DNA of 56,125 nt from Candidatus Magasanikiibacteriota bacterium (GTDB taxonomy: Bacteria > Patescibacteriota > Patescibacteriia > Magasanikbacterales > JACTTX01), in contig JACTTX010000009.1 of NCBI GenBank assembly GCA_015661005.1, positions 1 to 56,125 on the forward strand, given 5' to 3'. A program made the translations under genes and the position numbers. How positions within the stretch are numbered: position 1 is the stretch's first letter; every line of letters begins with the position of its first letter. This document shows, piece after piece, positions 6,464 to 43,039 of this stretch. The notes beneath the pieces were generated by a model. That model did no database searches. It was not told where the DNA came from and saw nothing but the letters and a program-made list of their open reading frames with translations.

Positions 6464-6559
6464 GTTGAATAGTTACCGGCAAATGGCGTGCGCTATCGGA
6501 GAATGAAGCGCAAATGTCGTGTTGCTTAGAACAAGAACGACATTTACGCTTCATTCTCC
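6464..6559. repeat. family-A palindromic element (orphan left arm plus full hairpin 6498-6559)
   Basis: GGAGAATGAAGCGCAAATGTCGTGTT..ACAAGAACGACATTTACGCTTCATTCTCC. Confidence 0.9.
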
Positions 6560-6574
6560 TCCAGCTTCCAGCTT

Positions 6575-7312
6575 CTAATTTCCCACTCCCGGCACCCATC
6601 CGCCGCTCACTTCAATGTTGGCGCCATTTATATATTCCGATTCCGGCGCCAAGAGAAATTTAACGGCATTCCAGATATCTTGAAACTGCGCGTAACGACC
6701 GGTCGGCACTTTGTGCTTGGCGACACTCGTTTCCAAAATTCCCGGCGAGACGGCGTTCACCTTAATTCCATACGGCGCATATGCGTTAGCCAGAATTTTG
6801 GTGAGCATCAATACTCCCGTTTTAGCAATATAATACGGCGTTGTCAATTCGCGAATAGTCATCCGGTCAGCGGCGGCACAGCCAAAATTAATGATCTGTC
6901 CGCTTTTTTGTTTCTTCATTTTTTCCAGCGCGATTTTACTCATCAAAAAAGTTGAATACAAATTGGTCTCAATCACGTCCTTAAATTTTTCAAAAGTCGT
7001 TTCTTCAATCGGTTCATAAATAAAATTACCGACGAGATTTACAAGGACGTCAATTTTTTTGTGCTGTGCGAAAATTTTTTTGAAAACGGCGGCGACTTGG
7101 CCCTCATTACGAACATCAAGTTTGAAAACCCCTGAACGCTGATCAAAGGCGGACAGTTCCTTTTGAAGCGCAACGGCTTCGTGACGGCTTGTTTTGTAAG
7201 TGACTATAACAACCGCTCCGGCCGACGCAAATTTCAAGGCCAACGCCCGGCCCAAACCTTTGGCCCCGCCCGTTAAAACCACAATTTTCCCGCGAAAAAA
7301 TTCATCGGACAT
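6575..7312 (-). CDS. short-chain dehydrogenase/reductase (possibly pteridine reductase-like)
   Basis: TGGAKGLG, catalytic YYIAK, VNAVSPG. Confidence 0.85.
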   Translation of the reverse strand: MSDEFFRGKIVVLTGGAKGLGRALALKFASAGAVVIVTYKTSRHEAVALQKELSAFDQRSGVFKLDVRNEGQVAAVFKKIFAQHKKIDVLVNLVGNFIYEPIEETTFEKFKDVIETNLYSTFLMSKIALEKMKKQKSGQIINFGCAAADRMTIRELTTPYYIAKTGVLMLTKILANAYAPYGIKVNAVSPGILETSVAKHKVPTGRYAQFQDIWNAVKFLLAPESEYINGANIEVSGGWVPGVGN

Positions 7313-7318
7313 GGTGCC

Positions 7319-7347
7319 ATTATGGCGCGGGATGGCATTCCTGGCAA
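7319..7347 (-). promoter_or_regulatory. sigma70 promoter, leaderless geometry
   Basis: TTGCCA-17-CATAAT, 6 nt before the ATG. Confidence 0.65.
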
Positions 7348-7384
7348 GATCGTGCGGACAATCGCGCCGTTATAAACTTCAATG

Positions 7385-8509
7385 CTATTCTTTGGGTTTT
7401 TTGGTCTCGCGGCGATGCTTATAAAAAGATGCGCCCGCGCCGGCTAAAAGCGCGGCCACAGCGCTCGCGCCAACCAATGTTAAAATAAAATCACGGCTGA
7501 TTTTGTTGCCATCGGATTTGTGATCATCTTTTTCCGAATCAGAATCATTTTTAATTTCCGCGGCCGACGACGTGACCGTTTGTTCAGATAACGGCACGGT
7601 AAATATTACCGGCGACTCGGATGCGGCCAGAACTGCCGACGTAAAATTCACGATTGGCGAAGACGGAACAATCAAATTGGACGTGGCTTTTTCGGACGGC
7701 TCTATTGCCGCGATTGACTTCGTCTTTGATCCGGCCGTATCAGTAGAACCAGTTGTGTCGGTACCCGTCCCCGAGGAACTGTTGCTTGAAGGACCGGACC
7801 CTGCTCCGCCACTTGCTCCGCCACCGCTCATGCCACCACCACCGCCACTACTGCCACCGCCACTTGATCCTCCTCCGCCACCACCACCGCTTGGCGGGTT
7901 AGGCGGCAAATCAGAAACCAACGGATTCGTGCCGCGCAAATACTCACTCAAGTTGCTGGCGCCATCAGCATCCGGATCCTTGACCGCGTCACTTGGGTCC
8001 AAAGGATTAAAACCGTACTTCTCCTCCCAGATATTTGGCATACCGTCGCCATCAGCGTCCGGATCATCAACGTCCGGAATGCCATCATTGTCAGCGTCCG
8101 CCAAGACATTTCTTGAGATGACAACGCTGTTGTTGCTTTCATCCACATCCGGCGTTTCCGTTGAACTGATAATTTTCACCTGAATAGCATGCAAACCGGG
8201 CCGTGTTGGTGTCCACTCCACCCAAATTTCTTCTTGCACGCCGTTTGTGCGCACGGAAATCGGCCGCGCTGTTTCAATGATTTCTCCATCATCAGTGAAA
8301 TAAACCGTGCCAATAAAATTCTCGCCGTAATTATGAACCGTGGCGTAAATTAAGACGGGTATATTCACCACCAATGGATTATTGGACGCAATCCAAACGT
8401 CGCTGACCCCAAGTCCGACATCATATACAGCGGCCCGCGCTGTGCCGCTCACAAAGACAGATGCAAAAATTATGAGCGCGATTCCAAAAGTGACATACTT
8501 TTTTTTCAT
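7385..8509 (-). CDS. surface protein: signal peptide, Ig/CARDB-like domain, TSP3-like Ca-binding repeats, Gly/Ser linker, C-terminal TM anchor
   Basis: ARA signal cleavage, DESNN, DADNDGIPD/DADGDGMPN/DADGASN, poly-G linker, hydrophobic tail followed by basic residues. Confidence 0.85.
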   Translation of the reverse strand: MKKKYVTFGIALIIFASVFVSGTARAAVYDVGLGVSDVWIASNNPLVVNIPVLIYATVHNYGENFIGTVYFTDDGEIIETARPISVRTNGVQEEIWVEWTPTRPGLHAIQVKIISSTETPDVDESNNSVVISRNVLADADNDGIPDVDDPDADGDGMPNIWEEKYGFNPLDPSDAVKDPDADGASNLSEYLRGTNPLVSDLPPNPPSGGGGGGGSSGGGSSGGGGGMSGGGASGGAGSGPSSNSSSGTGTDTTGSTDTAGSKTKSIAAIEPSEKATSNLIVPSSPIVNFTSAVLAASESPVIFTVPLSEQTVTSSAAEIKNDSDSEKDDHKSDGNKISRDFILTLVGASAVAALLAGAGASFYKHRRETKKPKE

Positions 8510-8609
8510 AGCATTAAATCAGAGTGAATGGCGCGCCTCTTAAATTTTCGGCGTGTTGACCTTGCATATTATAACCAATTTTATCCCGAATCCGCAATTG
8601 CCTGTGCAA

Positions 8610-9818: not shown

Positions 9819-9823
9819 AATAA

Positions 9824-12353: not shown

Positions 12354-12364
12354 AAATTATTTAG

Positions 12365-12414
12365 AATATCTTGTTGCTTAGAACAAGAACGATATTTGTC
12401 GGTTACTATTCAAC
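12365..12414. repeat. family-A element (truncated left arm)
   Basis: GTTGCTTAGAACAAGAACGA identical to the 6521-6540 copy; right arm GGTTACTATTCAAC. Confidence 0.88.
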
Positions 12415-12435
12415 TTATACGCCATTTGCCATTCA

Positions 12436-13782
12436 CTAAAAATAACTACGTCTCTTGGCGGCGAGCATTTCCTTAACCGCCGCCTCCGGCGTATCAATAA
12501 TTTTGAAGAGCGACATGTCCTCCGGCGCCACCGCCGCTTCCCGTTCAAAAACATTTTTTTGAATGAAATCAAAAAGCGGTTGCCAAAACTCGCGGCCGTA
12601 AAGCAAAACCGGAATCCGTTCCATTTTTTTGGTTTGCATCAAAGTCAACACCTCAAAGCATTCAGTGAGCGTCCCATAACCGCCGGGAAATAAAATGAAA
12701 CCTAGGGACGGCGAGGAGAGCATATACTTGCGCACAAACGTATAATGGAAACTGATGGAACGCCGGACAAACGGATTGATCCGTTCTTTGTGATCCACAC
12801 TGATGTCCAAGCCCAGCGATTCGGCGCCGGCGTGTGTAGCGCCTTTGTTGGCCGCTTCCATAATTCCCGGGCCGCCGCCGGTGATGATTGTTTTGCCGCG
12901 TCGACCAAGCTCTTTGCAAATGCGGTAGGCGTCGCTGTAAAATCGCGATTGCAATTTGATGTGCGCCGTGCCGATCACCGTGACGGGATTTTTTACGTTC
13001 TGCAAAAATTGATAACCTTCCACCAACTCCGCCATAATCCGGAAGACGCGCCAATTGACTTCATCGCCGTCGCAAAAGGCCTCCGGAGAAATTTCACAAC
13101 GCGGCCGTTCTTTGGTGCGGTGGACAATTTCATAGACCTCTTCAGCGGTGTCAACAATATGAAAGAGCGTCAGGTCTTCCTCGCGCAGAGCATGAATTTT
13201 TTGGTAAGCGTTGTGGCGAAGAAATTCCAAAAGCGGTTGCCAAAATTTTCGGTCAACCATAATGAGCGGCACGCGCATCATACGTTCGGAACGGATGAGA
13301 TCAAGCACTTCAAAAAATTCGTCCAAGGTTCCAAAACCGCCGGGGAAAAAAACAAACGCCTGCGACGGCGCGGTCAGAATCACCTTGCGCGTAAAAAAAT
13401 AATAAAAACCGACGGCCTTCTTGACGTACGGATTGATGCGCTGTTCGCGCGGCAATTGGATATTGATGCCAATTGATTCTCCCCCGCCTTCATAGGCGCC
13501 CTTGTTGGCCGCTTCCATAATTCCCGGGCCGCCGCCGGTCACGGTGGAAAATTTTCCTTTGGCCAACAAGCGTCCCAATTTTTGCGCTTCCTGATAATAC
13601 CACGATGTCGGCAAGGTGCGCGCCGAACCAAAAACCGTCACGGCGCGCGCAATGGATGCGAGAAAAGTGTACCCTTCAACCAGCTCCGCCATCACCCGAA
13701 AAATGCGCCACGTTCGTCCTTCGCCGAATTCGCGATAGATCGGCGTTGGAGAATTTGATTTTGAAGGCGCCGGTGGAGTCAT
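12436..13782 (-). CDS. tandem two-domain LOG family (TIGR00730-type) protein
   Basis: Two copies each of WRxFRxMAELVEGY, TGGGPGIMEAANKGA and PGGxGTxxE. Confidence 0.92.
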   Translation of the reverse strand: MTPPAPSKSNSPTPIYREFGEGRTWRIFRVMAELVEGYTFLASIARAVTVFGSARTLPTSWYYQEAQKLGRLLAKGKFSTVTGGGPGIMEAANKGAYEGGGESIGINIQLPREQRINPYVKKAVGFYYFFTRKVILTAPSQAFVFFPGGFGTLDEFFEVLDLIRSERMMRVPLIMVDRKFWQPLLEFLRHNAYQKIHALREEDLTLFHIVDTAEEVYEIVHRTKERPRCEISPEAFCDGDEVNWRVFRIMAELVEGYQFLQNVKNPVTVIGTAHIKLQSRFYSDAYRICKELGRRGKTIITGGGPGIMEAANKGATHAGAESLGLDISVDHKERINPFVRRSISFHYTFVRKYMLSSPSLGFILFPGGYGTLTECFEVLTLMQTKKMERIPVLLYGREFWQPLFDFIQKNVFEREAAVAPEDMSLFKIIDTPEAAVKEMLAAKRRSYF

Positions 13783-13795
13783 GCCATTAATTTTA

Positions 13796-15232
13796 TCACA
13801 TTTCTCTTTCCATCGCACGGCCGATCCTCAAAATAATATCTTCTTTAAATCTCGGGCCGATAATTTGCGCGCCAACCGGAAGCGTTCCGACTTTTCCGCA
13901 AGGCACGCTCAAAGCCGGCACACCGGCCAAATTTGCCGGTACCGTCAAAACGTCTGCCAAATACATGGCCAAAGGATTATCAACTAATTCTCCAATTCCA
14001 AAAGGCAATCCCGGATAAGTTGGTGTGATGAGCGCATCAACTTTTTCAAAAACATTTTCAAAGTCCTGTTTGATCAGCGTCCGAACTTTTTGCGCTTTCA
14101 AATAATAAGCGTCATAGTAACCGTGAGACAGCGCGTAGGCGCCGATCATAATGCGGCGTTTTACTTCCGCCGGCAAACCGGACGCGCGGCTTTGCGTGTA
14201 CACCCGCAAAAGATCGTTGCTGTCGCCGTTGGTGACGCGCGCGCCGAAGCGAAGGCCGTCGTATCGCGCCATGTTGGAGCTGTCTTCGCAAGGCACAACA
14301 ATGTAATAGGTGGCAATGGCGTACTTGGTGTGCCGCAGTGACACTTCTTCAACCGTTGCCCCGGCCTGCTCGCAGGCGGCAACGGCTTTCATCACGCAGG
14401 ATTTCACTTCTTCGTTCAAACCTTCAGCGAAATATTCTCTCGGCAAACCAATTCGCAAGCCGTCAATGCCTTTTTTAAGCTCATCGCGATAATTCGGAAC
14501 CGCTTCCGGCAAAGTGGTGGCGTCATACTGATCAACACCGGCAATCACTTCCATCACCGCGGCCGCGTCTTCAACGGTTTTAGTGAGCGGCCCGACCGTG
14601 TCCAATGATGAGGCCATTGGCATACAACCATAACGCGATGTCCGGCCATAACTCACTTTAAGTCCAACAACGCCGCAAAAAGCCGCCGGTTCCCGGATGG
14701 ATCCGCCGGTGTCCTCGCCGATGGCATAGGCGCAAAGATCAGCGGCCACGGCCGCGGCGCTGCCGCCGCTTGAGCCGCCGGAAACTTTGGCGGGGTCATG
14801 AGGATTTTTGACCGGCCCGTAATCCGAATTTTCATTGGAAGCGCCGTGACCAAAGGCGTCGCAATTATTTTTCCCAATTACAATACCGCCATTGTCGCGA
14901 ATTTTTCCAATAACCGTGGCATCATAAGGCGGAATGAAGTTATCTAAAATTTTGGCAGCCGCCGTTGTTCTGATTCCATGCGTGCACAAAGTATCCTTGA
15001 CGGCAAACGGCACGCCCTCCAGCGGCTGTAACTTTTCTCCAACCGCGATTTTACGATCAACGGCCAACGCTTCTTCCGCCGCGCTTTTTTCAGCAACTGT
15101 TATGAAAGCGTTCAAATCTTGATTGCGTTCGTTAATGCGGGCCAGGTAGGCGGCAACCAGTTCGGCGCAAGAAAAATCTTTTTGCCGAAGGCCTTTTTCC
15201 ACAGCAGAGATTGTAAGATTTTGTAGATTCAT
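13796..15232 (-). CDS. gatA: Asp/Glu-tRNA amidotransferase subunit A
   Basis: GGSSGGSAAAVAA amidase signature, DTGGSIREPA, EVKRRIMIG; start at MNLQNL. Confidence 0.95.
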   Translation of the reverse strand: MNLQNLTISAVEKGLRQKDFSCAELVAAYLARINERNQDLNAFITVAEKSAAEEALAVDRKIAVGEKLQPLEGVPFAVKDTLCTHGIRTTAAAKILDNFIPPYDATVIGKIRDNGGIVIGKNNCDAFGHGASNENSDYGPVKNPHDPAKVSGGSSGGSAAAVAADLCAYAIGEDTGGSIREPAAFCGVVGLKVSYGRTSRYGCMPMASSLDTVGPLTKTVEDAAAVMEVIAGVDQYDATTLPEAVPNYRDELKKGIDGLRIGLPREYFAEGLNEEVKSCVMKAVAACEQAGATVEEVSLRHTKYAIATYYIVVPCEDSSNMARYDGLRFGARVTNGDSNDLLRVYTQSRASGLPAEVKRRIMIGAYALSHGYYDAYYLKAQKVRTLIKQDFENVFEKVDALITPTYPGLPFGIGELVDNPLAMYLADVLTVPANLAGVPALSVPCGKVGTLPVGAQIIGPRFKEDIILRIGRAMEREM

Positions 15233-18691: not shown

Positions 18692-18695
18692 TCTT

Positions 18696-31304: not shown

Positions 31305-31310
31305 AGAATG

Positions 31311-31355: not shown

Positions 31356-31371
31356 GTACTCAAAAACGAAG

Positions 31372-31491: not shown

Positions 31492-31514
31492 GTTCCCCAT
31501 TGATTACTTTTCCT

Positions 31515-32213: not shown

Positions 32214-32229
32214 AATTGAGAAGTTATAA

Positions 32230-33408
32230 TTACGCCTTCCGCGTTGGCAACTCCGTCAATCGCGATTTTAGTTTTTGAACTTGGATCTCCGGCTGAAAAT
32301 CTTTTTGGTTGCGTAGACGAGCCCGCTCGCCTAAGGTGAGCGCCAACGTCGCATCGTCTTTAAGACGTGAAGTGGCCCGCACAATCTCTTCTGTTTTTTC
32401 GGGATCAACAATAATTCCGGTTTCTCCTTCAATGATGGCTTCGCCAACTCCGCCTCCCGCGCCGCCAATCGCCGGTTTGCCAAAAGCGGCGGCCTCCAGA
32501 AAAACAATGCCAAATCCTTCCACATCTTCTTTTGACTCGCGCGAAGGCATAATAAAAACGTTGGCTACCGATAGCCACTCTGCGGTCTCCAAATCCGAGA
32601 GCGGTCCGGTGAAACGAACACTGTTTTGCAAACCAAGTTCCACCACTTGGCGCCCCAAGGCGTTAATTTCCGGCCCGTCGCCGACTAAAACGTAGACCAA
32701 ATCGTGATATTTTTTAAGGATTACCGGTAAAGCGGCAATAACCGCATCAAATCCTTTGCGCTTAATCATTCGGCCAATGGAAAGCAAAATCCATTTGCGC
32801 TCCACGGCATAACGGCTCCGTAAATCATTCATTGCTGATTCCGAAACCGGAAAGCGAGCGGGCGTCAAATGAGCGCATGGATAAACCACAATGACGCGCG
32901 TTCCTATTTTGACGCGGTCGCGGGCATTGAACAATGATAAAAGATTTTTTTTAGTCGCTTCGGAATTAACGGTGATTAAATGCGCGCGACGCAAAATCAT
33001 TCGCGCCATCTGCCGTTTCCAAAAATGAGCGGCGGCGGATTTAACGTCCAGACCGTGAAGAGAAATGATGAATGGCGTGCGGCGCCACCACTTGGCCCAA
33101 AGAGCGGCGTAGCCCAAAGGCAAGAGATGGCTGACGTGTAAAAAATCTATTTTTTCTTTTTTGACAAAACGGCGGACGGCTTTGAGCGTCGGCATCCATG
33201 TCGGCCACAAAAATTTTCTCATCAACCGTTCTTTGATCACGCGGCGTCCGCTCGCATCTTTAAGTTCACCGCGCTGGCGGCGATCAGTGACATTAAGCAG
33301 TACAACAGCTTCATCAAAAGAAAATTGCGCGATGGTTGACGCGAGGGAATTACCAAGTCCGCCGATCTGCTCGGGCGGATATTCAAGAGTGAGGAAACCG
33401 ATGCGCAT
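32230..33408 (-). CDS. glycosyltransferase family 4
   Basis: GR..RKG, EGFGIVFLEA. Confidence 0.92.
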   Translation of the reverse strand: MRIGFLTLEYPPEQIGGLGNSLASTIAQFSFDEAVVLLNVTDRRQRGELKDASGRRVIKERLMRKFLWPTWMPTLKAVRRFVKKEKIDFLHVSHLLPLGYAALWAKWWRRTPFIISLHGLDVKSAAAHFWKRQMARMILRRAHLITVNSEATKKNLLSLFNARDRVKIGTRVIVVYPCAHLTPARFPVSESAMNDLRSRYAVERKWILLSIGRMIKRKGFDAVIAALPVILKKYHDLVYVLVGDGPEINALGRQVVELGLQNSVRFTGPLSDLETAEWLSVANVFIMPSRESKEDVEGFGIVFLEAAAFGKPAIGGAGGGVGEAIIEGETGIIVDPEKTEEIVRATSRLKDDATLALTLGERARLRNQKDFQPEIQVQKLKSRLTELPTRKA

Positions 33409-33444
33409 AGTTGGAGGTTAGAAGCTGGAAGCTGGAAGCTGGAA
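33409..33444. repeat. heptamer tandem repeat (GAAGCTG)n
   Basis: AGTTGGAGGTTAGAAGCTGGAAGCTGGAAGCTGGAA; inverse copies near 33585, 6560 and 18685. Confidence 0.8.
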
Positions 33445-33454
33445 TGTGTGGCGA

Positions 33455-33564
33455 GTGCGCATCTCTATTTGTTCGACATGGGTCCCGCGCATCTCTGATG
33501 ATAACACTAAGGTAGCGCAAACCCATGTCTCACAAACCCATGTCTCACAAACAGAGATGCGCAC
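33455..33564. repeat. nested palindrome with 15-bp tandem duplication
   Basis: GTGCGCATCTCT/AGAGATGCGCAC ends; GACATGGGT pairs with (ACCCATGTCTCACAA)x2. Confidence 0.85.
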
Positions 33565-33604
33565 CCTTAACAACATTTTTATATTCCAGCTTCTATCTTC
33601 ATAT

Positions 33605-34979
33605 TCATTTGCCATTCAACATCCTAACACCCAACTTCCGCCAAGAAACTGCCCGCAGAACAAGAATCATCGCGCCATAAATCAGCGCGCCAATCAGGGC
33701 GGCAACCAGAACATGCGTAAAGGGCTTCACCAATAAAACCGCAACGCCCATCGCTACCGTAGCGGCGCCAAGTTTGAGCCAGCCCACAAGAAGCAATCGC
33801 CATGGTATCACAAGCGGCGGCCGCGGCCCCGGTTATTCCCCATCGCGGAATAAAAAATAAATTGGCGATGAGATTAACAACCATGGTGGCGCCCATGGCC
33901 AACGTCTGGGCGTGCTGGCGATTGCAGGCATTCAAAAGCGAACCCACCGGAAAATCCAAAAAAGAAAAAATCAGCGCGGCCATTAAAAAAATCAACGCCG
34001 ACGCGGCGACACCATACTCCGGCAGAAAGGCGAACGCCAAAATTTCCTTGGCCAAGACACTGATGCCGACGGCCACCGGAAAAACAATTAAGGAAAGAGT
34101 AAAAGTGGCGCGCTCAAAAAGATGCGCCAAACGCGTTTTATCGCGAGCAAAACACTCGGACATTGCCGGATAAAGGGCGGCGGAAACGGCCATCGGGATG
34201 AATTGAAAAGCAAACGCGATTTTGTAGGGCACGCTGTAAAGTCCGACGGCGCGGCTGTCATTCAAAGTGCGCAAAAGCACCGAATCCAATCCAGAATAGA
34301 CGCGAGTGAAAATACCGGCCAGCGCAAAAGGCACGGCTTCTTTCACGATAGTCGGCAAAATGGCCATGCGCCCGACACCAAAAAGAGAAATCTTCTGCCA
34401 ATGCCAAAGTGACCAAGTTGACCACAAAACATTAAAGAGTGATCCGCCGGCCAAGGCGGCAATTAAAGTGACGAGCGGCCAATGTAAGAAAAGCGCCACC
34501 GCGCCAAATCCCAAGGTGAGCGTCTGCCCGATCACCACGCCCACGGCCTCCACTTTCAAATTTTGATGGGCGCGAAAAACGCCGTAGACCGTCAAATGCA
34601 CCGAATCAAACATCATCACCGCGCCAGCGGCGACGATCAAAATAATTTCCTCGGGACTGTAATGCTTGAGACCAATCGCGAAGAAAACGGCCAGAGCGTA
34701 AGCGCAGAGAACAAGAATTATTTTCACCCCTAGAACGGTGTGCAAAATTTCTCGGGTGCGTTCACGAGCGCGGGAAATTTCCCGAATCATGACCGGCGTC
34801 AATCCCAAATCAGCGACAATGGAAAAAATTGTCGTGAAAGCCAACGCAAAGGAGTATTTCCCTTGCTCGCCGGCGCCGAGCAAATTGGAAATGTAAGTGA
34901 AATAGACAAAAGACAGTAATTTTTGAGCAACAGAAGCGGCGCTCAAATAAAAAGCGTTTTTAGCCACCGTGGCATTCAT
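33605..34979 (-). pseudogene. Wzx/MurJ-like (MOP superfamily) flippase with frame break near 33812
   Basis: VAKNA..DLGL..REIS, YSVPYK, IPRWGITGAAAA; the last TM helices (IPWRLLL...) are in another frame. Confidence 0.8.
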
Positions 34980-35050
34980 GGAGACATTGTACGCGATTTT
35001 ACGACTCGCTGAAAGCGCGAAGCGCTGTTGGCGCCATGCCCGCCAACGGA

Positions 35051-35082
35051 AACAAAAACGCCCACTCGCGCGGGCGCTTTTT
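35051..35082 (-). terminator. intrinsic terminator of the ribosomal-protein cluster
   Basis: CGCCC stem followed by TTTTTGTT on the minus strand. Confidence 0.7.
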
Positions 35083-35132
35083 AGAAGTGGCGCCTTTGAT
35101 TTTTAGAAGTGGCGCCTTTGAGAGTGACACCT
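35078..35132. repeat. 22-bp tandem repeat plus a 31-bp unit shared with 49758-49788
   Basis: (TTTTTAGAAGTGGCGCCTTTGA)x2 then GAGTGACACCT. Confidence 0.9.
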
Positions 35133-35134
35133 TT

Positions 35135-35770
35135 TTAACGCTTGGCCCATTGCGGCGCACGACGCGCGCCGCGCAAGCCGAACTTTTTACGTTCTTTCAT
35201 TCGCGGATCGCGGCGCAAATATCCCACGGCCTTCAAAACCTTGCGCAATCCTTCTTCCGTGGAAACAATGGCGCGAGCAATGGCGAGTCGCACCGCTTCC
35301 GCTTGAGCCGGTTGGCCGCCGCCCGCCACTTTGGCCGTAACGTCAACAACGCCTTCTTTTCCGGATATAGTGAGCGCCTCTTTCACGGTTTGTTGTTGAA
35401 TCCAAAATGGGAAATACGCTTCCAACGTCCGTCCGTTGATCACGATTTTCCCCGTTCCGCCGACGTAAACGCGAACGCGCGCGGCCGCTTCCTTGCGCCG
35501 CCCGACAGCGTTCACAAAAGGACGACCGACAAATTCCGCAAAAGCGGCGGCCACCACCCGTGGCGCCGTCACCACTGTTTGTCCTTCCGCCTTGAGAACG
35601 GATTTTTTCGGACCGGATTTTTTGATTACCGTCACGCGCACGCCTTTGGGCGCCACGGCCTTTGGCGTCACCGTCTTGACAGAAGGTTTCTTGGCGGCTT
35701 TCTCCACCGCGGCCTTTTCCGGCGCTTTTGTTTTGACAACTTTGTTGGATTTAAGGATTTTGTCAGCCAT
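35135..35770 (-). CDS. rpsI: 30S ribosomal protein S9 with Lys/Ala-rich N-terminal extension
   Basis: GRRKEA.ARV, RDPRMKERKKFGL..ARRAPQWAKR. Confidence 0.96.
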   Translation of the reverse strand: MADKILKSNKVVKTKAPEKAAVEKAAKKPSVKTVTPKAVAPKGVRVTVIKKSGPKKSVLKAEGQTVVTAPRVVAAAFAEFVGRPFVNAVGRRKEAAARVRVYVGGTGKIVINGRTLEAYFPFWIQQQTVKEALTISGKEGVVDVTAKVAGGGQPAQAEAVRLAIARAIVSTEEGLRKVLKAVGYLRRDPRMKERKKFGLRGARRAPQWAKR

Positions 35771-35774
35771 ATTA

Positions 35775-36125
35775 TTATTTCACGATGGTGAGCCGCTTCA
35801 TCAAGTGCTTCCGCGTCCGGTTCTTTGGCAACATAAATAGAACAGCATGTTCCAACACTTCTTCCGGCCGATGCTTCATAATATCTTTGACCGGCCGCAC
35901 TTTAATGCCGCCCGGATGAGTGGTGTGATGGCGCAAAGCTTTTTGTTCAATTTTCTTTCCGCTCCAGGACATTTGCGAAACATTCACGACTTTCACGATA
36001 TCTCCATCATCAATATGCGGCGTATAAGTGGCTTTTTGTTTCCCGCGCAAAAATCCGGCCACTTCTGTGGCGATTCTTCCGACCGGTTTTCCCGTAGCGT
36101 CAATTATGTGCGTTACTCGGCTCAT
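35775..36125 (-). CDS. rplM: 50S ribosomal protein L13
   Basis: IIDA..GRIAT..LRGK..YTPHID.GD, MLPKN. Confidence 0.95.
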   Translation of the reverse strand: MSRVTHIIDATGKPVGRIATEVAGFLRGKQKATYTPHIDDGDIVKVVNVSQMSWSGKKIEQKALRHHTTHPGGIKVRPVKDIMKHRPEEVLEHAVLFMLPKNRTRKHLMKRLTIVK

Positions 36126-36155
36126 ATTCATTTGATTGAAGCGTCAGCTGATTTA

Positions 36156-36302
36156 ACGTTTGAATAGTATCCTGCGAATGTCGTTCTTGTCTTATGTTGG
36201 ATAGTTGCCGACAAATGTCGTGTTGCTTTGAACAAGAACGGCATTTGCCGATTACTATTCAATATGTGACAAGAACGCCATTTGCAGGTTACTATCCAAC
36301 GT
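36156..36302. repeat. nested family-A element (a complete copy inside the apex of another complete copy)
   Basis: Outer arms 36156-36191/36268-36302; inner element 36193-36266. Confidence 0.92.
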
Positions 36303-36357
36303 CTACGTCATTGGCAAGTAACTATCTAAATAAATCATGAATCTCATTCTTCTTCAT

Positions 36358-36708
36358 TTACACCAACTCAATCATCACCGTCTCTCCTGCATCTCCCTGC
36401 CGCCGTCCGATTTTTATGATTCGCGTGTAGCCGCCAACCCGCTCCTTATACCGCGGCGCCAGCACTTCAAAAATTTTCTTGACCGGATGTTCCGTGGAGA
36501 ATTGAGATAAAAGCAATCGCCGTCCGGCTAAAGTTCCGGCCTTCCCGCGGGTAATTGCCCGTTCAACAATCGGCGCTACCGCCCGCGCCTTGGCATCCGT
36601 GGTTGTCACGCGCTCGTACAAAATCACCTGCGCCGCCAAATTCTTAAGCAGAGCCGTGCGCGGGCCGACTTTGCGATCAAGAGTAATTTTTTTCTTGCGA
36701 TGCCTCAT
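36358..36708 (-). CDS. rplQ: 50S ribosomal protein L17
   Basis: MRHRK, TTDAKAR, GGYTRIIK.GRRQGD. Confidence 0.96.
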   Translation of the reverse strand: MRHRKKKITLDRKVGPRTALLKNLAAQVILYERVTTTDAKARAVAPIVERAITRGKAGTLAGRRLLLSQFSTEHPVKKIFEVLAPRYKERVGGYTRIIKIGRRQGDAGETVMIELV

Positions 36709-36713
36709 AAAAA

Positions 36714-37517
36714 TTATTCCGCCTTCTCGGCGTTCGCCTCTTCAGAAACTTCCTCTTCCTTCTTCTTTCGTCCGCGTTTTTTAACCGGCTCTTCCGCCGT
36801 CATGGGCAAAGCGGCGGCCGCGGCTAAAACTTCAGATCCAGCCACAAACGAGAAGTGATCAATGATAATCTGCACGGCTTGACGCACGGCTTCAGCCGGA
36901 GAAATGGTGCCGTCCGTTTCAATCTTGAACGTTACTTTTTCATAATTGGTGATATCACCGACACGAGTGAACTCCACGGAATAACCAACATCCCGAACCG
37001 GCGTGTAGATGGCGTCAATGGCAATGGTGCCGAGTTCTAAACTTTTCCGATCCCGTTCTTCAACCGGCACAAAACCGCGTCCTTGCGCGACAAAAATTTC
37101 CATTTCTAAATCCCCTTTTCCGTCCGTCAGCGTGGCCAGATGCAAATCCTTATTCATGATTTCCACATTGGCGTCCGGTTCAATGTCGCTGGCCGTAACC
37201 TCCCGCTCTCCTTGGACGTGCAAGGACAAACGCACTTCTTCCGTGGTGAAAACCTTGAGACGCAGTTGTTTCAAATTCAAAATCACCTGCACGACATCCT
37301 CTTTAACGTTCGGGATGGTGCCAAACTCATGCGGCACACCCTTGATTTTGACCGCGGTTACGGCCGCGCCCGGCAGAGAGGAAAGCAAAACGCGACGCAG
37401 GGCGTTTCCAATGGTAGTGCCGTAACCCTGATGGAACGGCGTGATGGTCACCAAGGCCTCATTGGGCTTGGCGCCGGGCGTGTATTCAATCGTGGTGGGG
37501 AGTAAAATGTTTTCCAT
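36714..37517 (-). CDS. rpoA: RNA polymerase alpha subunit lacking the alpha-CTD
   Basis: GYGTTIGNALRRVLLSS, DAIYTPV, ETDGTISP; ends in a low-complexity charged tail. Confidence 0.95.
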   Translation of the reverse strand: MENILLPTTIEYTPGAKPNEALVTITPFHQGYGTTIGNALRRVLLSSLPGAAVTAVKIKGVPHEFGTIPNVKEDVVQVILNLKQLRLKVFTTEEVRLSLHVQGEREVTASDIEPDANVEIMNKDLHLATLTDGKGDLEMEIFVAQGRGFVPVEERDRKSLELGTIAIDAIYTPVRDVGYSVEFTRVGDITNYEKVTFKIETDGTISPAEAVRQAVQIIIDHFSFVAGSEVLAAAAALPMTAEEPVKKRGRKKKEEEVSEEANAEKAE

Positions 37518-37535
37518 ATTTTTGGAAAAAGAGCA

Positions 37536-38174
37536 TTAACGGGAATAGTACTCAACAATGGGCTTGGCGCTAAAAGCGTCCCCGAGTTCCATTCCCTGCG
37601 GCCGCGAGACAACGCGGGCGCTTAAATTATTAGTATCAAGTGATAACCAAGACGGCGGCGTGATCTTTTCCAGTGACGGTTTCAAATTCTCAAAATATTT
37701 TCCGTCTTTGTCCGAAACATGCACCACGATGGCGTCATCCAATCGCACCTGAATGGATGGAATGGTGACTTTTTTGCCGTTGACCGTAAAGTGGCCGTGA
37801 GCGACAAGTTGCCGCGCTTGGGCGCGCGATTTGGCGAGCCCCAAACGATAAATGACATTATCAAGACGCATTTCCAGCATCTGCTTCAAAATTTCTCCGG
37901 TATCGCCGGTTTTTTCCGAGGCCTTTATAACGTAATTGCGGAACTGGCGCTCAAAAATACCGTAGATGCGTTTGGCTTTCTGCTTCTCTCGCAACTGTTT
38001 GCCAAAACCGCTCATCTTCGGTTTGCGCGCGCCTTGCGTTGGGCCGTGCGCGCCGGGCGGAAAGGCGCGACGCACGACCGGACACTTGGACGTAAAACAT
38101 TTCTCACCTTTGAGGAAAAGTTTTTCGCCTTCACGGCGGCACTGGCGGCATTTTGGTCCGGTTAATCGTGCCAT
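37536..38174 (-). CDS. rpsD: 30S ribosomal protein S4
   Basis: CRQCRREG, QLREKQK, LEMRLDN, IVEYYSR. Confidence 0.97.
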   Translation of the reverse strand: MARLTGPKCRQCRREGEKLFLKGEKCFTSKCPVVRRAFPPGAHGPTQGARKPKMSGFGKQLREKQKAKRIYGIFERQFRNYVIKASEKTGDTGEILKQMLEMRLDNVIYRLGLAKSRAQARQLVAHGHFTVNGKKVTIPSIQVRLDDAIVVHVSDKDGKYFENLKPSLEKITPPSWLSLDTNNLSARVVSRPQGMELGDAFSAKPIVEYYSR

Positions 38175-38182
38175 AAATCAGG

Positions 38183-38692
38183 TTAGACGCGGCGCGGCCG
38201 TTTTTGGCGGCAACCGTTATGCGGGAGCGGCGTCATATCAATCACGGAAAGCACATTCAAACCGTTGGCGTTCAAGGCGCGAATGGCGCCTTCCCGCCCT
38301 TGTCCGATGCCTTTCAAAAAAACATCAACATCTCTCAAGCCCACATCGGCAATTTTTCCCAAAGCCGTTTTCACGATTATCCCGGCGGCGTACGGCGTTG
38401 ATTTTTTTGGGCCCTTGAAGCCGACTTGTCCGGCCGAGCACCAACCCAAAACATTTCCCTGCTTGTCCGCAAAGGTCACGATGGTGTTGTTGAAGGTTGC
38501 CAAAATATAAACATTGCCGTTGGTGATGGTCTTAGCGCCTTTCTTACGCTTGGCCTGTGGTTTGCGTTTAATTTTTGTTTTCCCGTCTTTTTTATCAGCT
38601 TCCGGTTTTTCTCCATTCTTTTCCGCAACGCCAACCTCACCGCCTTCGGCGGCCGCTATGTCAGTTTCTATTTTTTTTAGCTCGTCAGTCAT
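38183..38692 (-). CDS. rpsK: 30S ribosomal protein S11 with N-terminal extension
   Basis: TFNNT, GFKG.KKSTPYAA, TPLPHNGCR. Confidence 0.96.
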   Translation of the reverse strand: MTDELKKIETDIAAAEGGEVGVAEKNGEKPEADKKDGKTKIKRKPQAKRKKGAKTITNGNVYILATFNNTIVTFADKQGNVLGWCSAGQVGFKGPKKSTPYAAGIIVKTALGKIADVGLRDVDVFLKGIGQGREGAIRALNANGLNVLSVIDMTPLPHNGCRQKRPRRV

Positions 38693-38736
38693 ACCTTATA
38701 CTTATGCTTAAACATTCTCTATTCTCTATTCTCCCC

Positions 38737-39132
38737 CTACGTCTTCTCGGCCGATGATTTTTTGCCGGAGCCCATGGTCTTCCGGGTATTATGCCGCACC
38801 GTCCGACAATTGGTTTTAGTGCGCTGTCCGCGCGTTGGCAATTCTTTAATGTGCCTGATGCCGCGATAGCACTTAATCTCTTTCAAACGCTTGATGTTGC
38901 TCAAAACCTCGCGCCGTAAATCGCCTTCAACACGAAAATTCTTTTCAACGTAATCGCGCAAATGATCAACGTCTTCCTGGGATAAATCTTTGGTGCGGGC
39001 ATCCGGGCTGATTTTCAAAACCGCCAAAATTTTTTGGCTCTGGGTGCGGCCAATACCGTAAATATACGGCAGAGCCGCTTCAATTCTTTTGTTAGCCGGT
39101 AAAACTATTCCCGCGATTCTGGCTGTGGCCAT
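38737..39132 (-). CDS. rpsM: 30S ribosomal protein S13
   Basis: [27 protein letters not shown]. Confidence 0.96.
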
Positions 39133-39133
39133 A

Positions 39134-39247
39134 TCAACCTTGTCTTTGTTTATGTTTGGGGACCCTACAAATACAAACAACGCGTCCATGACGGCGCAAA
39201 ACTTTGCAATCCTTACAGATGGCTTTGACGGACGCTCTAACTTTCAT
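39134..39247 (-). CDS. rpmJ: 50S ribosomal protein L36 (below the ORF-track length cutoff)
   Basis: Translated by hand: [37 protein letters not shown]. Confidence 0.96.
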
Positions 39248-39298
39248 AAAACAAAACGCACAGGCCAACCTTACTGTGGCTCGGCCTGAACGTCACGA

Positions 39299-39535
39299 TT
39301 AGTAACGATAGACAATGCGACCTCTCGTGAGATCGTAAGGAGTGATGGCGACTTTAACTTCATCCCCGGGCAACAAGCGGATGCGATGCAAACGCATCTT
39401 TCCGGCCAAGTATCCGCGAATGCTGTGACCATTCTCAAGACGAATTTTGAAAGTTGCCGCCGGCAAAAGTTCCTCAACCACGCCTTTCATTTCCACGACG
39501 TCTTTTGAGGATCCTACTGGCTGGGGTTCTCCCAT
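39299..39535 (-). CDS. infA: translation initiation factor IF-1
   Basis: [35 protein letters not shown]. Confidence 0.95.
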
Positions 39536-39554
39536 AGTTCTAATTTCTTGGCTT

Positions 39555-39583
39555 AGTATAAAGGAAGGCCAATTAACTGTCAA
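39555..39583 (-). promoter_or_regulatory. sigma70 promoter of the infA-rpoA cluster
   Basis: TTGACA-17-TATACT. Confidence 0.75.
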
Positions 39584-39653
39584 GTGGTTCAGCGGATTTG
39601 TTAAAGAGTGTCAAGTTGCTGTGTTAAGCGAAAAATTCTGGGGGTGTGGATGA

Positions 39654-41327
39654 TTACTCGGTGTATCTTCCGCCCGGCGGATCAGTCAGATGCAGAAACT
39701 CTCCCCCATCAAAGAGAAAATACTGAATCTCCTTATCACGATTTGTCCGCCAAAAATTTTTAGTCATTTGGATTTCATAACGCCGCGCCCGAGCGCCAAC
39801 CAGATCCGTCAATTTCAAAATATAATCTTCGCTCTCCAAAAATTCCGGACCGCGGAACGGGTAGCCCTGATTGGCCGTAAAAATAAAACCGGATGACGCT
39901 TGCGTAAACGTAAAATTTTTAACACGATCCTGATCAGCGGTCAGAGCGATATTCACGGGCACGAAAATTGTGTCGGCCTGATCATCATCATATAAAAATT
40001 GTGTCGCCAACTTAAAAAATGGATGGGACAGCAGATGCGCGCCGTTATAATTATCCGGAAGCCACAAAAAAATTTCTCCGTGCGGCTTAGTAGATTTTTG
40101 CTCGGCGTAACTCACGAGCATTTTCTGGACACTGATACCGGCGCGGGCGTGCCAGCGCGCCTTGCGCAGAAGCAAGAAGCTGTTGCCGACAATAAAAATA
40201 ATTATTAAAACCATGAGCGCTAGGCGCATTTTTTTTCCGGCGCTCGACCACCAATTAATGACGGCTGTTGCGAGCCAGAGCACGAACCAAACTGACGGAT
40301 AATACAAATATCTTTCACCGCCGTCGTCAACGGCGCCGCGGAAAGTGTTGATTGTAAAAAAGGCGGCGGCCGGAGCGGCGGAGATTATTGTGAGAAGCAT
40401 GAGCCAGCCCGCATCCTGACGGCGGCGGAGCAACATGATGAGCCAAACTAAAATTACAACGGCCAGCGCCACGGCCAACCAGAGATGATCAAGAAAAAAA
40501 AGTGTTGTGGCGGTGCGCCAGCGGCCGCCGACAAAAAACATCGGCAGAGCGGCAAACAAAAAATTCCAGCCCTTAAGAGCGAGTGATGTTATTGTTAGTG
40601 GCTCGTGCAAATAATTAGCGGCAAAAAATCCGGTGGCGTAGGCGCGCACGAAGAAAAAACCAATGACCAAGGCGACGGCGCCACTGATTATGAGCCACAC
40701 GCGGCGCTCACGCAGTGATTCTTTTTTCTGCCAAGCGGCGAGAATTAAAAAAATTAGCGGAGCGGTGATGGCGAACTCCTTGCTCATCAAAGCCAGCGCG
40801 GTAAAAAATAAAGTCAACAGACCGGCCCGAACGCGTCCGGTTTTTAGAAAAGCAAGAAAACTTATTGCCGCCGCCAATAAAAACGCGGTGGCTAAGAGAT
40901 CGGCGCGACTGCCAATCCATAAAACCGGCTCGGCGTGAAAATGCGCCGTGCTAAAAAAAATAACGGCGAGCAAGGTTATACCGACCTGATGGGATTTGAA
41001 TAAACGCCATGAGAGGAGTCCGACTAAAAAGACGACGAGGAGATGCAGGAAGAGTGAAGTCAAATGAAAGGACAAGGGGCTTGGACCAAAAAACGCCAAG
41101 TCCGCAATTATTGAAAGAGTCATGAGCGGGCGGTAAGAGCCACCGTCACGGTTACCGGCATGATTGGTAATCAAGAGGTGCGGAATTGATGAGGGATTGG
41201 CCAACGCGCTTTTGGCCGTGCTTAAAAATTCAAAGTCATCGGCCACAAAAAAGGCGCGCTGGGCCGGGACAAAAAGTGCGGCCGAAAGAACGGCAATGGC
41301 GGCAACGTAGAAAAAAATGCCTCTCAT
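39654..41327 (-). CDS. GT-C fold membrane glycosyltransferase (TMTC/PMT-like)
   Basis: ADDF first-loop acidic pair, YRPL, HAEPV.WI..R, SKE, ERYLY; many TM segments. Confidence 0.75.
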   Translation of the reverse strand: MRGIFFYVAAIAVLSAALFVPAQRAFFVADDFEFLSTAKSALANPSSIPHLLITNHAGNRDGGSYRPLMTLSIIADLAFFGPSPLSFHLTSLFLHLLVVFLVGLLSWRLFKSHQVGITLLAVIFFSTAHFHAEPVLWIGSRADLLATAFLLAAAISFLAFLKTGRVRAGLLTLFFTALALMSKEFAITAPLIFLILAAWQKKESLRERRVWLIISGAVALVIGFFFVRAYATGFFAANYLHEPLTITSLALKGWNFLFAALPMFFVGGRWRTATTLFFLDHLWLAVALAVVILVWLIMLLRRRQDAGWLMLLTIISAAPAAAFFTINTFRGAVDDGGERYLYYPSVWFVLWLATAVINWWSSAGKKMRLALMVLIIIFIVGNSFLLLRKARWHARAGISVQKMLVSYAEQKSTKPHGEIFLWLPDNYNGAHLLSHPFFKLATQFLYDDDQADTIFVPVNIALTADQDRVKNFTFTQASSGFIFTANQGYPFRGPEFLESEDYILKLTDLVGARARRYEIQMTKNFWRTNRDKEIQYFLFDGGEFLHLTDPPGGRYTE

Positions 41328-42019
41328 AATTGATAACGGCGGCGGATTTTAATCAGATCTTTGGCCATTTGCACACCATCGGTGATCACCCGGACAGTTG
41401 AATATCGCGATGGACGGACTTGCGCCACGGGAAACGCGCTGATTTTGAAACCGTAACGGCGCGCCGCGGCCAAAATTTCCACGTCAAAAGCAAAACCGTC
41501 AGTCGCGAGTTCCCTAAAAATCTGCCGGGCCGCGTCCACCCGAAATATTTTTATTCCGCATTGCGTGTCCGTAATTTCTCCGGTCAGTCCGTCAATGCAG
41601 ACGCGCCAAAAAAAACTTGTGAGTTGCCGCAGTGGACCGTTGGATGCAACCGCGTACGCGCCTGCATGCGCACGCGAACCGACAATGATGTCCACGGCGC
41701 CGCCTTGGAGAATATTTTGCATTTCCTTGAGCGGCTCCAGCCCATACGGCAAATCAGCGTCCGTGAAAGCAATGTATTCTCCGCCAGCCGTCAACACACC
41801 GGCTTTAACGGCCGCGCCTTTGCCGCGGTTCTCGGCAAAATTAATCACGCGCAGATCTAAAAAATCGTCCCGGCCGGACAAAATTTCTCCGGTGGCGTCA
41901 TCGCTTCCGTCATTCACAACAATTATTTCCGCGTCGCCGCCAAAAAAATCATTGATCCGGGAAATTGTGTCGGTAATCACCGCCGCCGCGTTGTATGCCG
42001 GAATAATAATGGAAAGCAT
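41324..42019 (-). CDS. polyprenol-phosphate glycosyltransferase (GT2, DPM1/ALG5-like)
   Basis: NDGSDD, NRGKGAAV, FTDAD, DTQCGIK, FAFDVE. Confidence 0.9.
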   Translation of the reverse strand: MLSIIIPAYNAAAVITDTISRINDFFGGDAEIIVVNDGSDDATGEILSGRDDFLDLRVINFAENRGKGAAVKAGVLTAGGEYIAFTDADLPYGLEPLKEMQNILQGGAVDIIVGSRAHAGAYAVASNGPLRQLTSFFWRVCIDGLTGEITDTQCGIKIFRVDAARQIFRELATDGFAFDVEILAAARRYGFKISAFPVAQVRPSRYSTVRVITDGVQMAKDLIKIRRRYQL

Positions 42020-42021
42020 AC

Positions 42022-42438
42022 TTATCGTTCACTTTTGAAAACCCAGAACCGATAAAGCAAAAACGTCCAGCTGACGACAATTCCAACGGCCAAAACTTTT
42101 GCCACCAGGTGCGGCAGATGAATCAGCTCCACGGCCAAAACCAAAAAAGCAATTTGAAATAAATTATTCCAGCCGACTAAAATTAGATAACGGATGAATT
42201 CAGCGCGTCCCTGTCCGCGGCTTTCAAAAGACCAATGCTTATTCAAAAGAAAATTATAAGTGATGGCGCAGGTCTGGGAGATAATCGTGGCCAAAATGTA
42301 CCAGACGCCCAGCCGTCGCACGGTTTCAAAAATTCCGGCGTCAATGATAAAAGAAGTCAAACCGGTGATGATATAGCGGCGCAACTGCCGCCGGTTGGCC
42401 ACGCACCAGTCCAAACAAACACGGATAGTTTTTCTCAT
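42022..42438 (-). CDS. GtrA family lipid-sugar flippase
   Basis: RYIITG, NFLLNKHWSF, RFWVF; 4 TM segments; start at MRKT. Confidence 0.85.
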   Translation of the reverse strand: MRKTIRVCLDWCVANRRQLRRYIITGLTSFIIDAGIFETVRRLGVWYILATIISQTCAITYNFLLNKHWSFESRGQGRAEFIRYLILVGWNNLFQIAFLVLAVELIHLPHLVAKVLAVGIVVSWTFLLYRFWVFKSER

Positions 42439-42461
42439 AAGCAGCCGCGGGGGCCGGGAAA

Positions 42462-42893
42462 CTACTTCTGCCGGAAAAGCGCCCGCTCGCTCCACAAATA
42501 CAGCCCGAAAATAATCACGAGCACAATCAAAATTCCGTTCACCAAATAAGCGCCGGAAACAATCGCGGCGTAAATTGAATACGCGACAACCGCGAGCAAA
42601 AGCAACTCGTAGATGAGCATGGCCCAGAATTTCAAACGCCACATTTCAATGCCGACCCCGGCCAAAACAACGCCAATCAAACCGTAAAAAAGTGCCACCG
42701 GCGGTGATAATTTAAAAATAACAGCGGCAATGTAAAAGGCATACGTGGCGGCGGCAACGCCAAAAATTGATAGGGCCATTATCAACCACGTTGGTTTTTG
42801 TTTGGGGCCGATCGGCGCGACCGGCGACGGTGCTGGCGGCATAGCCGACGACGATTGCATTTCTGACGTTGGTTGTTGATTTTGATTTTCCAT
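42462..42893 (-). CDS. hypothetical membrane protein
   Basis: Q/P-rich N-terminus followed by 4 TM segments. Confidence 0.75.
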   Translation of the reverse strand: MENQNQQPTSEMQSSSAMPPAPSPVAPIGPKQKPTWLIMALSIFGVAAATYAFYIAAVIFKLSPPVALFYGLIGVVLAGVGIEMWRLKFWAMLIYELLLLAVVAYSIYAAIVSGAYLVNGILIVLVIIFGLYLWSERALFRQK

Positions 42894-42914
42894 AGAGTTT
42901 TGGTGAAGATTGGA

Positions 42915-43039
42915 GAATAGTGAAAGCCAATAGCATTCTTGACTGGCGTTGGACAGTAACCTGCAAATGTCGTGTCTTCAATCAAGAACGCCATTTGCAG
43001 GTTACTGTCCAACACTCTGCCATTGGTCATTCACTATTC
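42915..43039. repeat. nested family-A palindromic element
   Basis: Inner arms 42948-42973/42988-43013 (GTTGGACAGTAACCTGCAAATG); outer GAATAGTGAA/TTCACTATTC. Confidence 0.92.

Follow-up and report, generated by a model that had tools for sequence, protein, structure and literature searches.

The described elements closest to those reported here are REP (repetitive extragenic palindromic) sequences and the REPIN elements, which Bertels and Rainey reportedly linked in 2011 with RAYT (Y1 HUH) transposases. The insertion sequences (IS) IS1397 and ISKpn1 target REP loops. Miniature inverted-repeat transposable elements (MITEs) are bounded by conserved terminal inverted repeats, are accompanied by a target-site duplication, and have a parent IS that encodes a DDE transposase; the palindrome-associated transposable elements (PATE) derived from IS200/IS605 possess two different subterminal hairpins (left and right ends), next to which lies a short target or cleavage motif. 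The attC sites of integrons carry RYYYAAC...GTTRRRY boxes at the base of the stem, have a variable tip, and form arrays next to intI. According to passages of Di Nocera et al. (2013; PMC3733652), the stem of REPs ends on one side in an unpaired, conserved tag (GTAG or CGTC), and TIRtrons comprise genes for tyrosine transposases (TIRYTs) set between long inverted repeats that contain a GGGGWSAS motif. Here, we describe Family A, a palindromic repeat occupying six intergenic gaps of a 56,125-nt contig (JACTTX010000009.1; the window, contig 23 of our analysis) from a Candidatus Magasanikiibacteriota genome of 870,457 bases in 44 contigs and 97.85% completeness. Family A is REP/REPIN-like but lacks the tag, the cognate transposase, and the conservation pattern of REPs, and it is a kind of inserted REP-like repeat DNA not yet described.

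The Family A unit is a hairpin of 60–80 nt composed of a 23–32-bp stem capped by a near-invariant, asymmetric and bulged tip of 21–22 nt. A profile of the core detected 82 copies genome-wide at E<1e-3, and a covariance model built from 30 copies placed the family at 75 distinct sites, the true strand scoring about 30 bits above the reverse strand. Among the 79 cores that were parsed, the median stem measured 27 bp and the tip read CGTGTT-loop-CAAGAACG, the main loops being CTCCAAT (29 copies and close variants) and GCTTAGAA (28 copies and variants). When 61 distinct hairpins were aligned over 24 stem columns, 1389 of the 1464 cells (95%) were Watson–Crick pairs, 19 were A·C, 10 were G·T, and 46 were other combinations. 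The near-absence of wobble pairs on either strand points to a constraint on a DNA hairpin more than on an RNA. The preliminary description of this window, which was made from the letters alone, had stated that the arms change while pairing is kept, and the covariation analysis bears this out: in the 30-copy alignment, 91.7% of cells paired compared with 66.1% in shuffled alignments, 23 of the 27 stem pairs changed on both sides (220 cells, against about 14 one-sided changes), none of 500 shuffles reached the observed values, and pairing fell to 33–43% when the partner was slid by 1–3 columns.

Conservation along the stem was uneven. Counting from the tip, columns 1–11 were nearly fixed, columns 12–14 were hypervariable, and columns 15–22 were semi-conserved, with A:T at column 21 in 60 of 61 copies and G:C at column 18 in 52 of 61. 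The two conserved stem patches lie about one helical turn apart and would represent one face of the helix contacted by a protein. Two other accounts of the stems were rejected. The arms are not local sequence, given that stems overlap coding ends by 6 nt at most and that every arm in the rplQ–rplM gap is extra DNA; arms found only once still keep the family positions at columns 21 and 18, which makes them diverged relatives. Flipping of the apex by recombination between the arms does not fit column 4, where a T·C mismatch accounts for 18 of the 46 other combinations and its mirror G·A never occurs.

The copies of Family A are inserted DNA. The genes rplQ and rplM were adjacent in all 29 relatives fetched, and the gap between them, 226 nt in this genome, did not exceed 20 nt in 25 relatives; the remaining four had gaps of 40, 53, 57, and 139 nt. 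The site is thus empty in 25 of 29 relatives, in agreement with the earlier proposal of a non-autonomous repeat arriving by insertion. In the relative with the 139-nt gap, another genome of the order (L091), a different long palindrome with a branched tip of two small hairpins stood at the same site; a fixed tip on a long co-varying stem is the architecture common to this palindrome, Family A, and another capped-hairpin family, family C, described below. Nesting was frequent. Among 80 right halves with a complementary partner, 67 paired across 9–11 nt, 12 across 48–91 nt, and one across 148 nt, and an outer half-core lay within 28 nt of 28 of the 79 parsed cores, in the same orientation in 17 cases, opposite in 9, and mixed in 2, a split close to what independent insertions, each 85% biased, would give. 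Near-identical Family A hairpins were located in the cap loop of 6 of the 12 family C copies, whose outer stems differ from one another; the family C copy in the window (33455–33564) has none. In addition, at a site that holds a simple copy in this genome, a metagenome contig of a close strain, with flanks 99.6–99.7% identical, carried a nested copy whose outer arm differed. A possible target motif is ...ACAAGAACG, which inserted copies regularly abut.

A relative of this organism provided information on the persistence of the copies. The pattern scan of metagenome contigs returned 13 contigs, of which 8 belong to this organism (99.6–100% identical) and 5 to a sister species at 77–83% identity. 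Each of the five sites at which the sister species has a copy holds one in this genome too; since about a tenth of gaps carry a copy, the probability of this shared occupancy by chance is estimated at roughly 1e-5. In three pairs still in situ, tip type and orientation were the same and the tips were identical at 21/22, 21/22, and 21/21 positions, while the arms were about 55%, 78%, and roughly 40% identical (estimated by eye from alignments); at least four arm substitutions in one of the pairs (L038/C5) were compensated on the other arm, as read off the alignment. Third-codon identity in the flanking genes was 0.685, so the arms drift at an approximately neutral rate and yet remain paired. 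What keeps the tip constant is either selection acting on every single copy or its ongoing correction from the others. In the two remaining orthologous pairs the content had been replaced, in one by a reverse-oriented copy of a different subfamily and in the other by a three-layer nest.

Family A shares features with several of the classes named above. Like bacterial interspersed mosaic elements (BIMEs), it forms mosaics of units in both orientations, and as with IS1397 and ISKpn1 a hairpin tip serves as insertion target; here, the insert is another copy of the same small hairpin and not an IS, and no DDE transposase was found. The termini, conserved in MITEs, are the most variable part of Family A, and neither an rve nor a DDE_Tnp_1 gene was found in the genome. 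For PATE the comparison is mixed: Family A is a single symmetric hairpin without two distinct ends, but the ACAAGAACG that its copies abut could be a target motif. The likeness to REP/REPIN elements is greater: Family A is short, abundant (75–82 copies in 870 kb), intergenic, palindromic, and non-autonomous, and the genome contains Y1 transposase genes. As passages of Di Nocera et al. (PMC3733652) describe for REPs, the copies lie mostly downstream of genes, occur singly, as dimers, and in mosaics, and are long inherited at orthologous sites; the same passages give stems of 8–9 bp for the CGTC families, compared with 23–32 bp in Family A. Further differences from REPs are that no cognate RAYT gene flanked by the same repeat was found, that copies insert into each other's tips, and that they show a strong single orientation relative to genes.

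The distribution of the family is narrow. The exact core was absent from 40 close relatives, and the covariance model gave only one marginal match of 28 bits, terminator-like by sequence, in 150 other genomes of the order. Among 185,579 species genomes, the exact core matched 17 times, never with complementary flanks; most of these matches are one near-identical motif that we took for a conserved gene stretch, reading frames not having been checked. Family A had no matches in viral contigs and none in plasmids. Regarding Rfam, the window gave only two tRNAs at the gathering threshold, and the best match within 36100–36360 had an E value of 0.83 (13 bits compared with a threshold of 40.5), so the check for a known family that accompanied the preliminary description returned no match to the element. 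Within the limited coverage of the literature searched on palindromic repeats of Patescibacteria or the candidate phyla radiation (CPR), or on MITEs with conserved loops, there was no description of such repeats.

Taken together, these data are best read, with a probability of about 0.5, as a lineage-restricted family of the REP/REPIN kind consisting of inserted, long-lived palindromic DNA, in which the conservation pattern is reversed and the recognised part is the tip with the inner stem. Tip and inner stem would be the recognition site of a protein acting on the hairpin once it is extruded as single-stranded DNA; the lagging-strand template is the most plausible place for this and would set the orientation. 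Stem pairing would be kept at the DNA level, by selection for a hairpin substrate or by symmetrisation of the palindrome, rather than by selection on an RNA. New copies often lie within the tips of older ones, facing either way, or within a family C cap, and the composites are then copied whole. The best candidate enzymes in this genome, and candidates only, may be two HUH/Y1 transposases of the TIRYT type, paralogous proteins of 217 and 212 aa encoded on contig 32 that match PF01797 and NF047646 (79.3 and 83.5 bits on the latter, cut-off 80). Theirs are the only transposase genes found in the genome, in which no IS110, TnpB, rve, DDE_Tnp_1, or resolvase gene was detected and a single reverse-transcriptase match (contig 44) covers only positions 117–203 of the 205 in the model. 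Y1 genes were present in 45 of the 150 other genomes of the order (E<=0.001). In the window itself no transposase was found, in line with the original statement: seven transposase and recombinase families were searched without a match on this contig.

Several observations weigh against Family A being REP-like mobile DNA. Its tip is fixed and its stem variable, whereas REPs conserve stem and tag and have a freer loop; it bears no GTAG or CGTC tag, the base of the stem has no invariant tetranucleotide, and the outer columns are the most variable of the 30-copy alignment. Both Y1 genes are flanked not by Family A but by inverted repeats of another family, family B (GGGGACAGTTCTAAA-GGGGACACTTCTAAA or a GGTGTCAC variant). 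Within 6 kb, no right half paired at a longer distance than those given above, and no gene lay inside a split Family A copy. With the Y1 genes flanked by family B and the split copies devoid of genes, no mobiliser was found; of the suggestion that a mobiliser recognises the asymmetric core, what persists is that the asymmetric tip is the constrained part. The two-layer junction is identical in five nests, which indicates that composites were copied as units and that the self-targeting events are not independent. The proposal that the element targets existing copies therefore keeps the support of copies in older tips and family C caps and is weakened by the recurrence of composites as whole units. 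At the nests, loop letters were replaced rather than merely interrupted; neither a target-site duplication, for which no rigorous test was made, nor a clean junction of the insertion was discerned. The gene calls were crude longest-ORF calls (858 open reading frames, ORFs, covering 90.7% of the genome), and they put 18 of the 82 cores within ORFs, for the most part at edges that had been miscalled. Purifying selection at the level of the host would also keep the tip fixed in copies that are inherited vertically, and a functional RNA or DNA signal predicts the same. Finally, core orientation does not separate replication from transcription as its source; in the seven cases where gene and neighbourhood conflict, it followed the gene in five and the neighbourhood in two.

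Orientation and position of the cores bear on the alternatives. A single gene stop lay within 200 nt of 55 cores, of which 47 were opposite the strand of that gene and 8 on the same strand (p = 8e-8), and hairpins typically began 3–130 nt from the stop codon. Of the 82 copies, 67 had their core on the strand that is C-rich locally; with 537 of 745 genes on the G-rich strand, transcription and replication are confounded as sources of this orientation, and the orientation check proposed earlier accordingly returned a strong bias (47:8) that fits both equally. The main rival holds that Family A is a host RNA signal, a hairpin transcribed at the gene end or between cistrons whose fixed tip is read by a protein, for instance a processing nuclease as at RNase III intercistronic sites, a 3′-end protector, or a factor-dependent terminator; the hairpin would have spread because it was useful, and pairing would be selected in the RNA. 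It accounts just as well for a tip that is fixed and for an orientation linked to genes, and in its favour stand the 47 of 55 cores opposite the gene, the five of seven conflicting cases that follow the gene, the proximity to stop codons (3–130 nt), the conservation of the tip far above the neutral level at orthologous sites, the double changes that preserve pairing, and strong folds in the mRNA sense (z of −5.9 to −11.5 at five loci of the window; +0.54 at a truncated sixth copy). RNA stems usually tolerate G·U pairs, however, and such pairs are almost absent whichever strand is considered (of the 1464 cells, 19 are A·C and 10 are G·T). Tandem gaps held 44 cores (39 opposite to the genes and 5 in the same direction), divergent gaps 11, and convergent gaps 9, which is the split of the background (505, 98, and 98, respectively) and shows that copies are not tied to 3′ ends. 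Read in the usual mRNA sense, long-stem hairpins rarely had a run of five or more T (3 of 62; 5 of 62 in the core sense), so these are not ordinary terminators; the rarity of such runs and the background split of gap types also set Family A apart from intrinsic terminators as a class, in which a short G+C-rich stem precedes a U run at the 3′ ends of genes. Moreover, 25 of 29 relatives manage with a gap of 0–20 nt between rplQ and rplM, and the shells of nests are found in both orientations. On balance, we regard a host RNA signal as possible but somewhat unlikely.

The strand bias of the core is also what would be expected if the extruded hairpin, or the octamer CAAGAACG, were a host DNA signal with polarity, read on one strand in replication, repair, or segregation in the manner of Chi, of KOPS-type skewed motifs, or of a single-strand initiation signal. 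The strictly Watson–Crick stems and the tip fixed across species agree with this idea. We consider it improbable, as the C-strand skew is confounded with gene direction, the absence from the 150 other genomes of the order indicates no core function of the group, and the nested, half, and truncated copies resemble insertion debris. A folded-hairpin recombination site is harder still to sustain. Family A hairpins would then be attC-like substrates of one of the two Xer- or integron-type tyrosine recombinases encoded in the genome, which would insert hairpin into hairpin. Family A and attC are alike in that structure is kept rather than sequence and in that an imperfect palindrome, folded as a single strand, has an asymmetry that marks one strand; one of the two recombinases scores 250.9 bits on the integron-integrase subfamily model (cut-off 265), three tandem CAAATGCCGTG-like motifs follow its gene, and GTTGAAT...ATTCAAC are common arm ends. 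In contrast, these ends present the boxes in the reverse order to attC, the conserved base and variable tip of attC are exchanged in Family A, there are no cassettes or cassette arrays, and the recombinase matches Xer models equally well and is not beside an array, all of which makes this explanation very improbable.

Two companion repeat families accompany Family A. Family B, made of GGGGACAGTTCTAAA/GGGGACACTTCTAAA units and hairpins of about 69 nt, was located in the window at 4070–4140, 35080–35117, and 49758–49773, and in the stretches L001 (1406–1435 and 2126–2156) and L002 (1191–1220 and 1907–1936). A loose scan with up to three mismatches found 69 loci, about 45 of which are multi-unit or clear by our reading. 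As far as passages of Di Nocera et al. (PMC3733652) describe the TIRtron/TIRYT class, both Y1 genes with their family B repeats (GGGGACAG...) fit it. Family A likewise forms hairpins, similar to the family B derivatives of about 69 nt, but has no GGGGWSAS motif and does not flank the Y1 genes; the only overlap between the two families is the 7-mer TTAGAAC (/GTTCT), shared by the v2 tip and the family B unit, with an estimated chance of about 5% at random. Family C is a capped hairpin with a fixed cap TTCGACACGGGTCCCGCGCC...AAGGTGGCGCAAACCCATG and locus-specific stems, present at 33455–33564 of the window and at 11 other loci. Families A and C and the capped palindromes of related genomes may belong to one undescribed mobile class of tip-defined hairpin elements, in which a small structured tip would be the sole sequence-specific part, read by a single-stranded-DNA enzyme (HUH/Y1 or other) on the lagging-strand template, with new copies entering existing tips and stems kept palindromic by a DNA-level copying process such as fold-back or template-switch synthesis; this extension is speculative, and we think it unlikely.

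Regarding its significance, Family A stands in a group whose ultra-small CPR genomes are thought to be stripped to essentials, and this genome of 870 kb nevertheless keeps about 5 kb of it, by our estimate some 6% of the non-coding DNA, in addition to at least two further palindrome families. The combination of a fixed tip with a free but strictly Watson–Crick stem separates the part that is recognised from the part that merely pairs, and the family thereby offers a concrete substrate for testing the poorly understood RAYT and TIRYT enzymes, or for discovering a new protein that reads hairpins. Should the tip be read on one strand as DNA, the family would also be a natural marker of replication direction in the genomes of unculturable organisms. 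For annotation, the repeats explain assembly breaks at these sites: Logan contigs of three DNA runs covering 30600–43200 stop or join falsely at them.

Within the window, the element was present at all six sites claimed, as five complete hairpins and one truncated copy, and the pattern AAATRTCGTGT-N4-20-CAAGAACG gave five matches, all on the plus strand, compared with a mean and a maximum of 0 in 100 shuffles. All six loci lie between co-directional minus-strand genes, as had been noted. At the first, between an unnamed ORF and a gene of the short-chain dehydrogenase/reductase (SDR) family, an orphan left half on the plus strand (6464–6491, arm GTTGAATAGTTACCGGCAAATGGCGTG, right partner absent), recognised by reading the sequence and by a half-motif scan, stands beside a complete plus-strand hairpin at 6498–6559, which has a 23-bp stem and the tip CGTGTT-GCTTAGAA-CAAGAACG (covariance-model score 73.7 bits, fold z −8.4) and whose end is 15 nt away from the stop codon of the SDR gene upstream (6575–7312, minus strand). 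The second locus, between a TIGR00730-family gene and an lgt-like gene, holds the truncated plus-strand copy (12362–12414; nhmmer E 6e-7), in which tip and right arm are present and about 17 nt of the left arm are deleted, leaving no stable fold (z +0.54). This copy adjoins the start codon of the lgt-like gene and is followed by an orphan half of a reversed outer shell on the minus strand (12415–12438; left half on minus at 12417 in the half-motif scan), which abuts or overlaps the stop codon of the gene at 12436–13818. At the third locus, between genes encoding a response regulator and a prepilin peptidase, a left half with CGTGTT and no right arm (18560–18590, plus strand, from sequence reading and the half-motif scan) forms a half-plus-full composite, also seen at about eight other loci, with a complete plus-strand hairpin at 18610–18684 that belongs to the GGCGAATGAAAGGGC subfamily and has a 30-bp stem and the tip CGTGTT-CTCCAAA-CAAGAACG (80.0 bits, z −7.8).

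The other three loci are nests. The plus-strand two-layer nest at 31369–31496 (z −7.9), between a glycosyltransferase gene and lexA, has a decayed outer shell (31369–31395 and 31463–31496) in the same orientation as its inner complete hairpin (31392–31464, plus strand, 29-bp stem, 80.7 bits). The rplQ–rplM gap is filled by a three-layer mosaic of mixed orientation (36159–36330, z −5.9) composed of a reversed outermost shell (36159–36190 and 36305–36330), an inner complete plus-strand hairpin (36196–36263, 67.1 bits), and an extra plus-strand right half (36269–36300). Downstream of alaS, between that gene and an unnamed ORF, a two-layer nest of mixed orientation (42912–43040, z −11.5) has a reversed outer shell (42912–42944 and 43016–43040) around a complete plus-strand hairpin with a 29-bp stem and a shortened tip loop, TTCAAT (42945–43016, 77.0 bits). 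The whole copy said to be nested at 36156 was thus recovered, with three layers plus the extra right half. The Russian-doll arrangement described for most loci applies to 31372, 36156, and 42915 and not to 6464 and 18532, where a half-element lies beside a full hairpin; the identical orientation described for all six is true of the innermost cores and not of the outer shells at 12415–12438, 36159–36330, and 42912–43040, which are reversed. The consensus sequence given earlier proved to be that of one subfamily and does not represent the family as a whole. The hexamer CTACAG likewise precedes only one Family A subfamily. In all, four genes have Family A copies on both sides (two epimerases, a membrane protein, and a small helix-turn-helix protein), a number not above our chance expectation.

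Additional observations concern sequences near these repeats. The lexA gene (30690–31304) is situated directly downstream of the nest at 31369–31496; the Gram-positive SOS box has the arrangement GAAC-N4-GTTC, and the Family A tip contains GTTC/GAAC half-sites, but not in this arrangement. Throughout the genome, many hairpins of both Family A and family C are bordered by short CCAGCTTCC / GGAAGCTGG repeats, which are found in the window at 6560–6577, 18684–18695, 33421–33445, and 33585–33600. Just after the stop of the XerA/integron-integrase-like gene (L107 630–673, contig 19), the motifs AAATCGTGT, CAAATGCCGTGCT, and CAAATGCCGTGCT stand in tandem; they resemble the inner stem of Family A and form no hairpin. 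On contig 40 (L104 302–1135), an ORF of 277 aa whose product has a Bac_DnaA_C helix-turn-helix (PF08299, E 3.7e-10) is bordered on both sides by family B repeats in inverted arrangement and is the third gene framed by this repeat. The palindrome GGGACAGGTGCTCCGGGGACAGATCCC / GGGATCAGTCCCCGTTGAACCTGTCCC at 47136–47192 of the window combines GGGGACAG-like units with a different body and may be a diverged relative of family B. Close strains differ by insertions of 56 nt and 59 nt in coding regions (window 33811/33812; L034 853–911 compared with contig 20 at 19799); neither length is a multiple of three, the 59-nt insertion is not palindromic by eye, and both may be either assembly errors or real indels. 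Contig 20 also carries, at about 20540–20630, a GC-rich palindrome TGTGTGTCGTCTCGGCGACC...GGTCGCCGAACGACACACA that is absent from the 99.7%-identical strain contig L034 and probably represents a further mobile hairpin family. Finally, the last 21 nt of the tRNA-Gln gene (27118–27191) are inverted 40 nt downstream with 90% complementarity around a 19-bp hairpin, so that the 3′ end of the tRNA forms one arm of an 81-nt palindrome (27168–27248), a related stretch of which is located on contig 26. This palindrome looks as if it had been extended outward by copying of flanking sequence, and the fold-back or template-switch copying suggested above may also have produced it.

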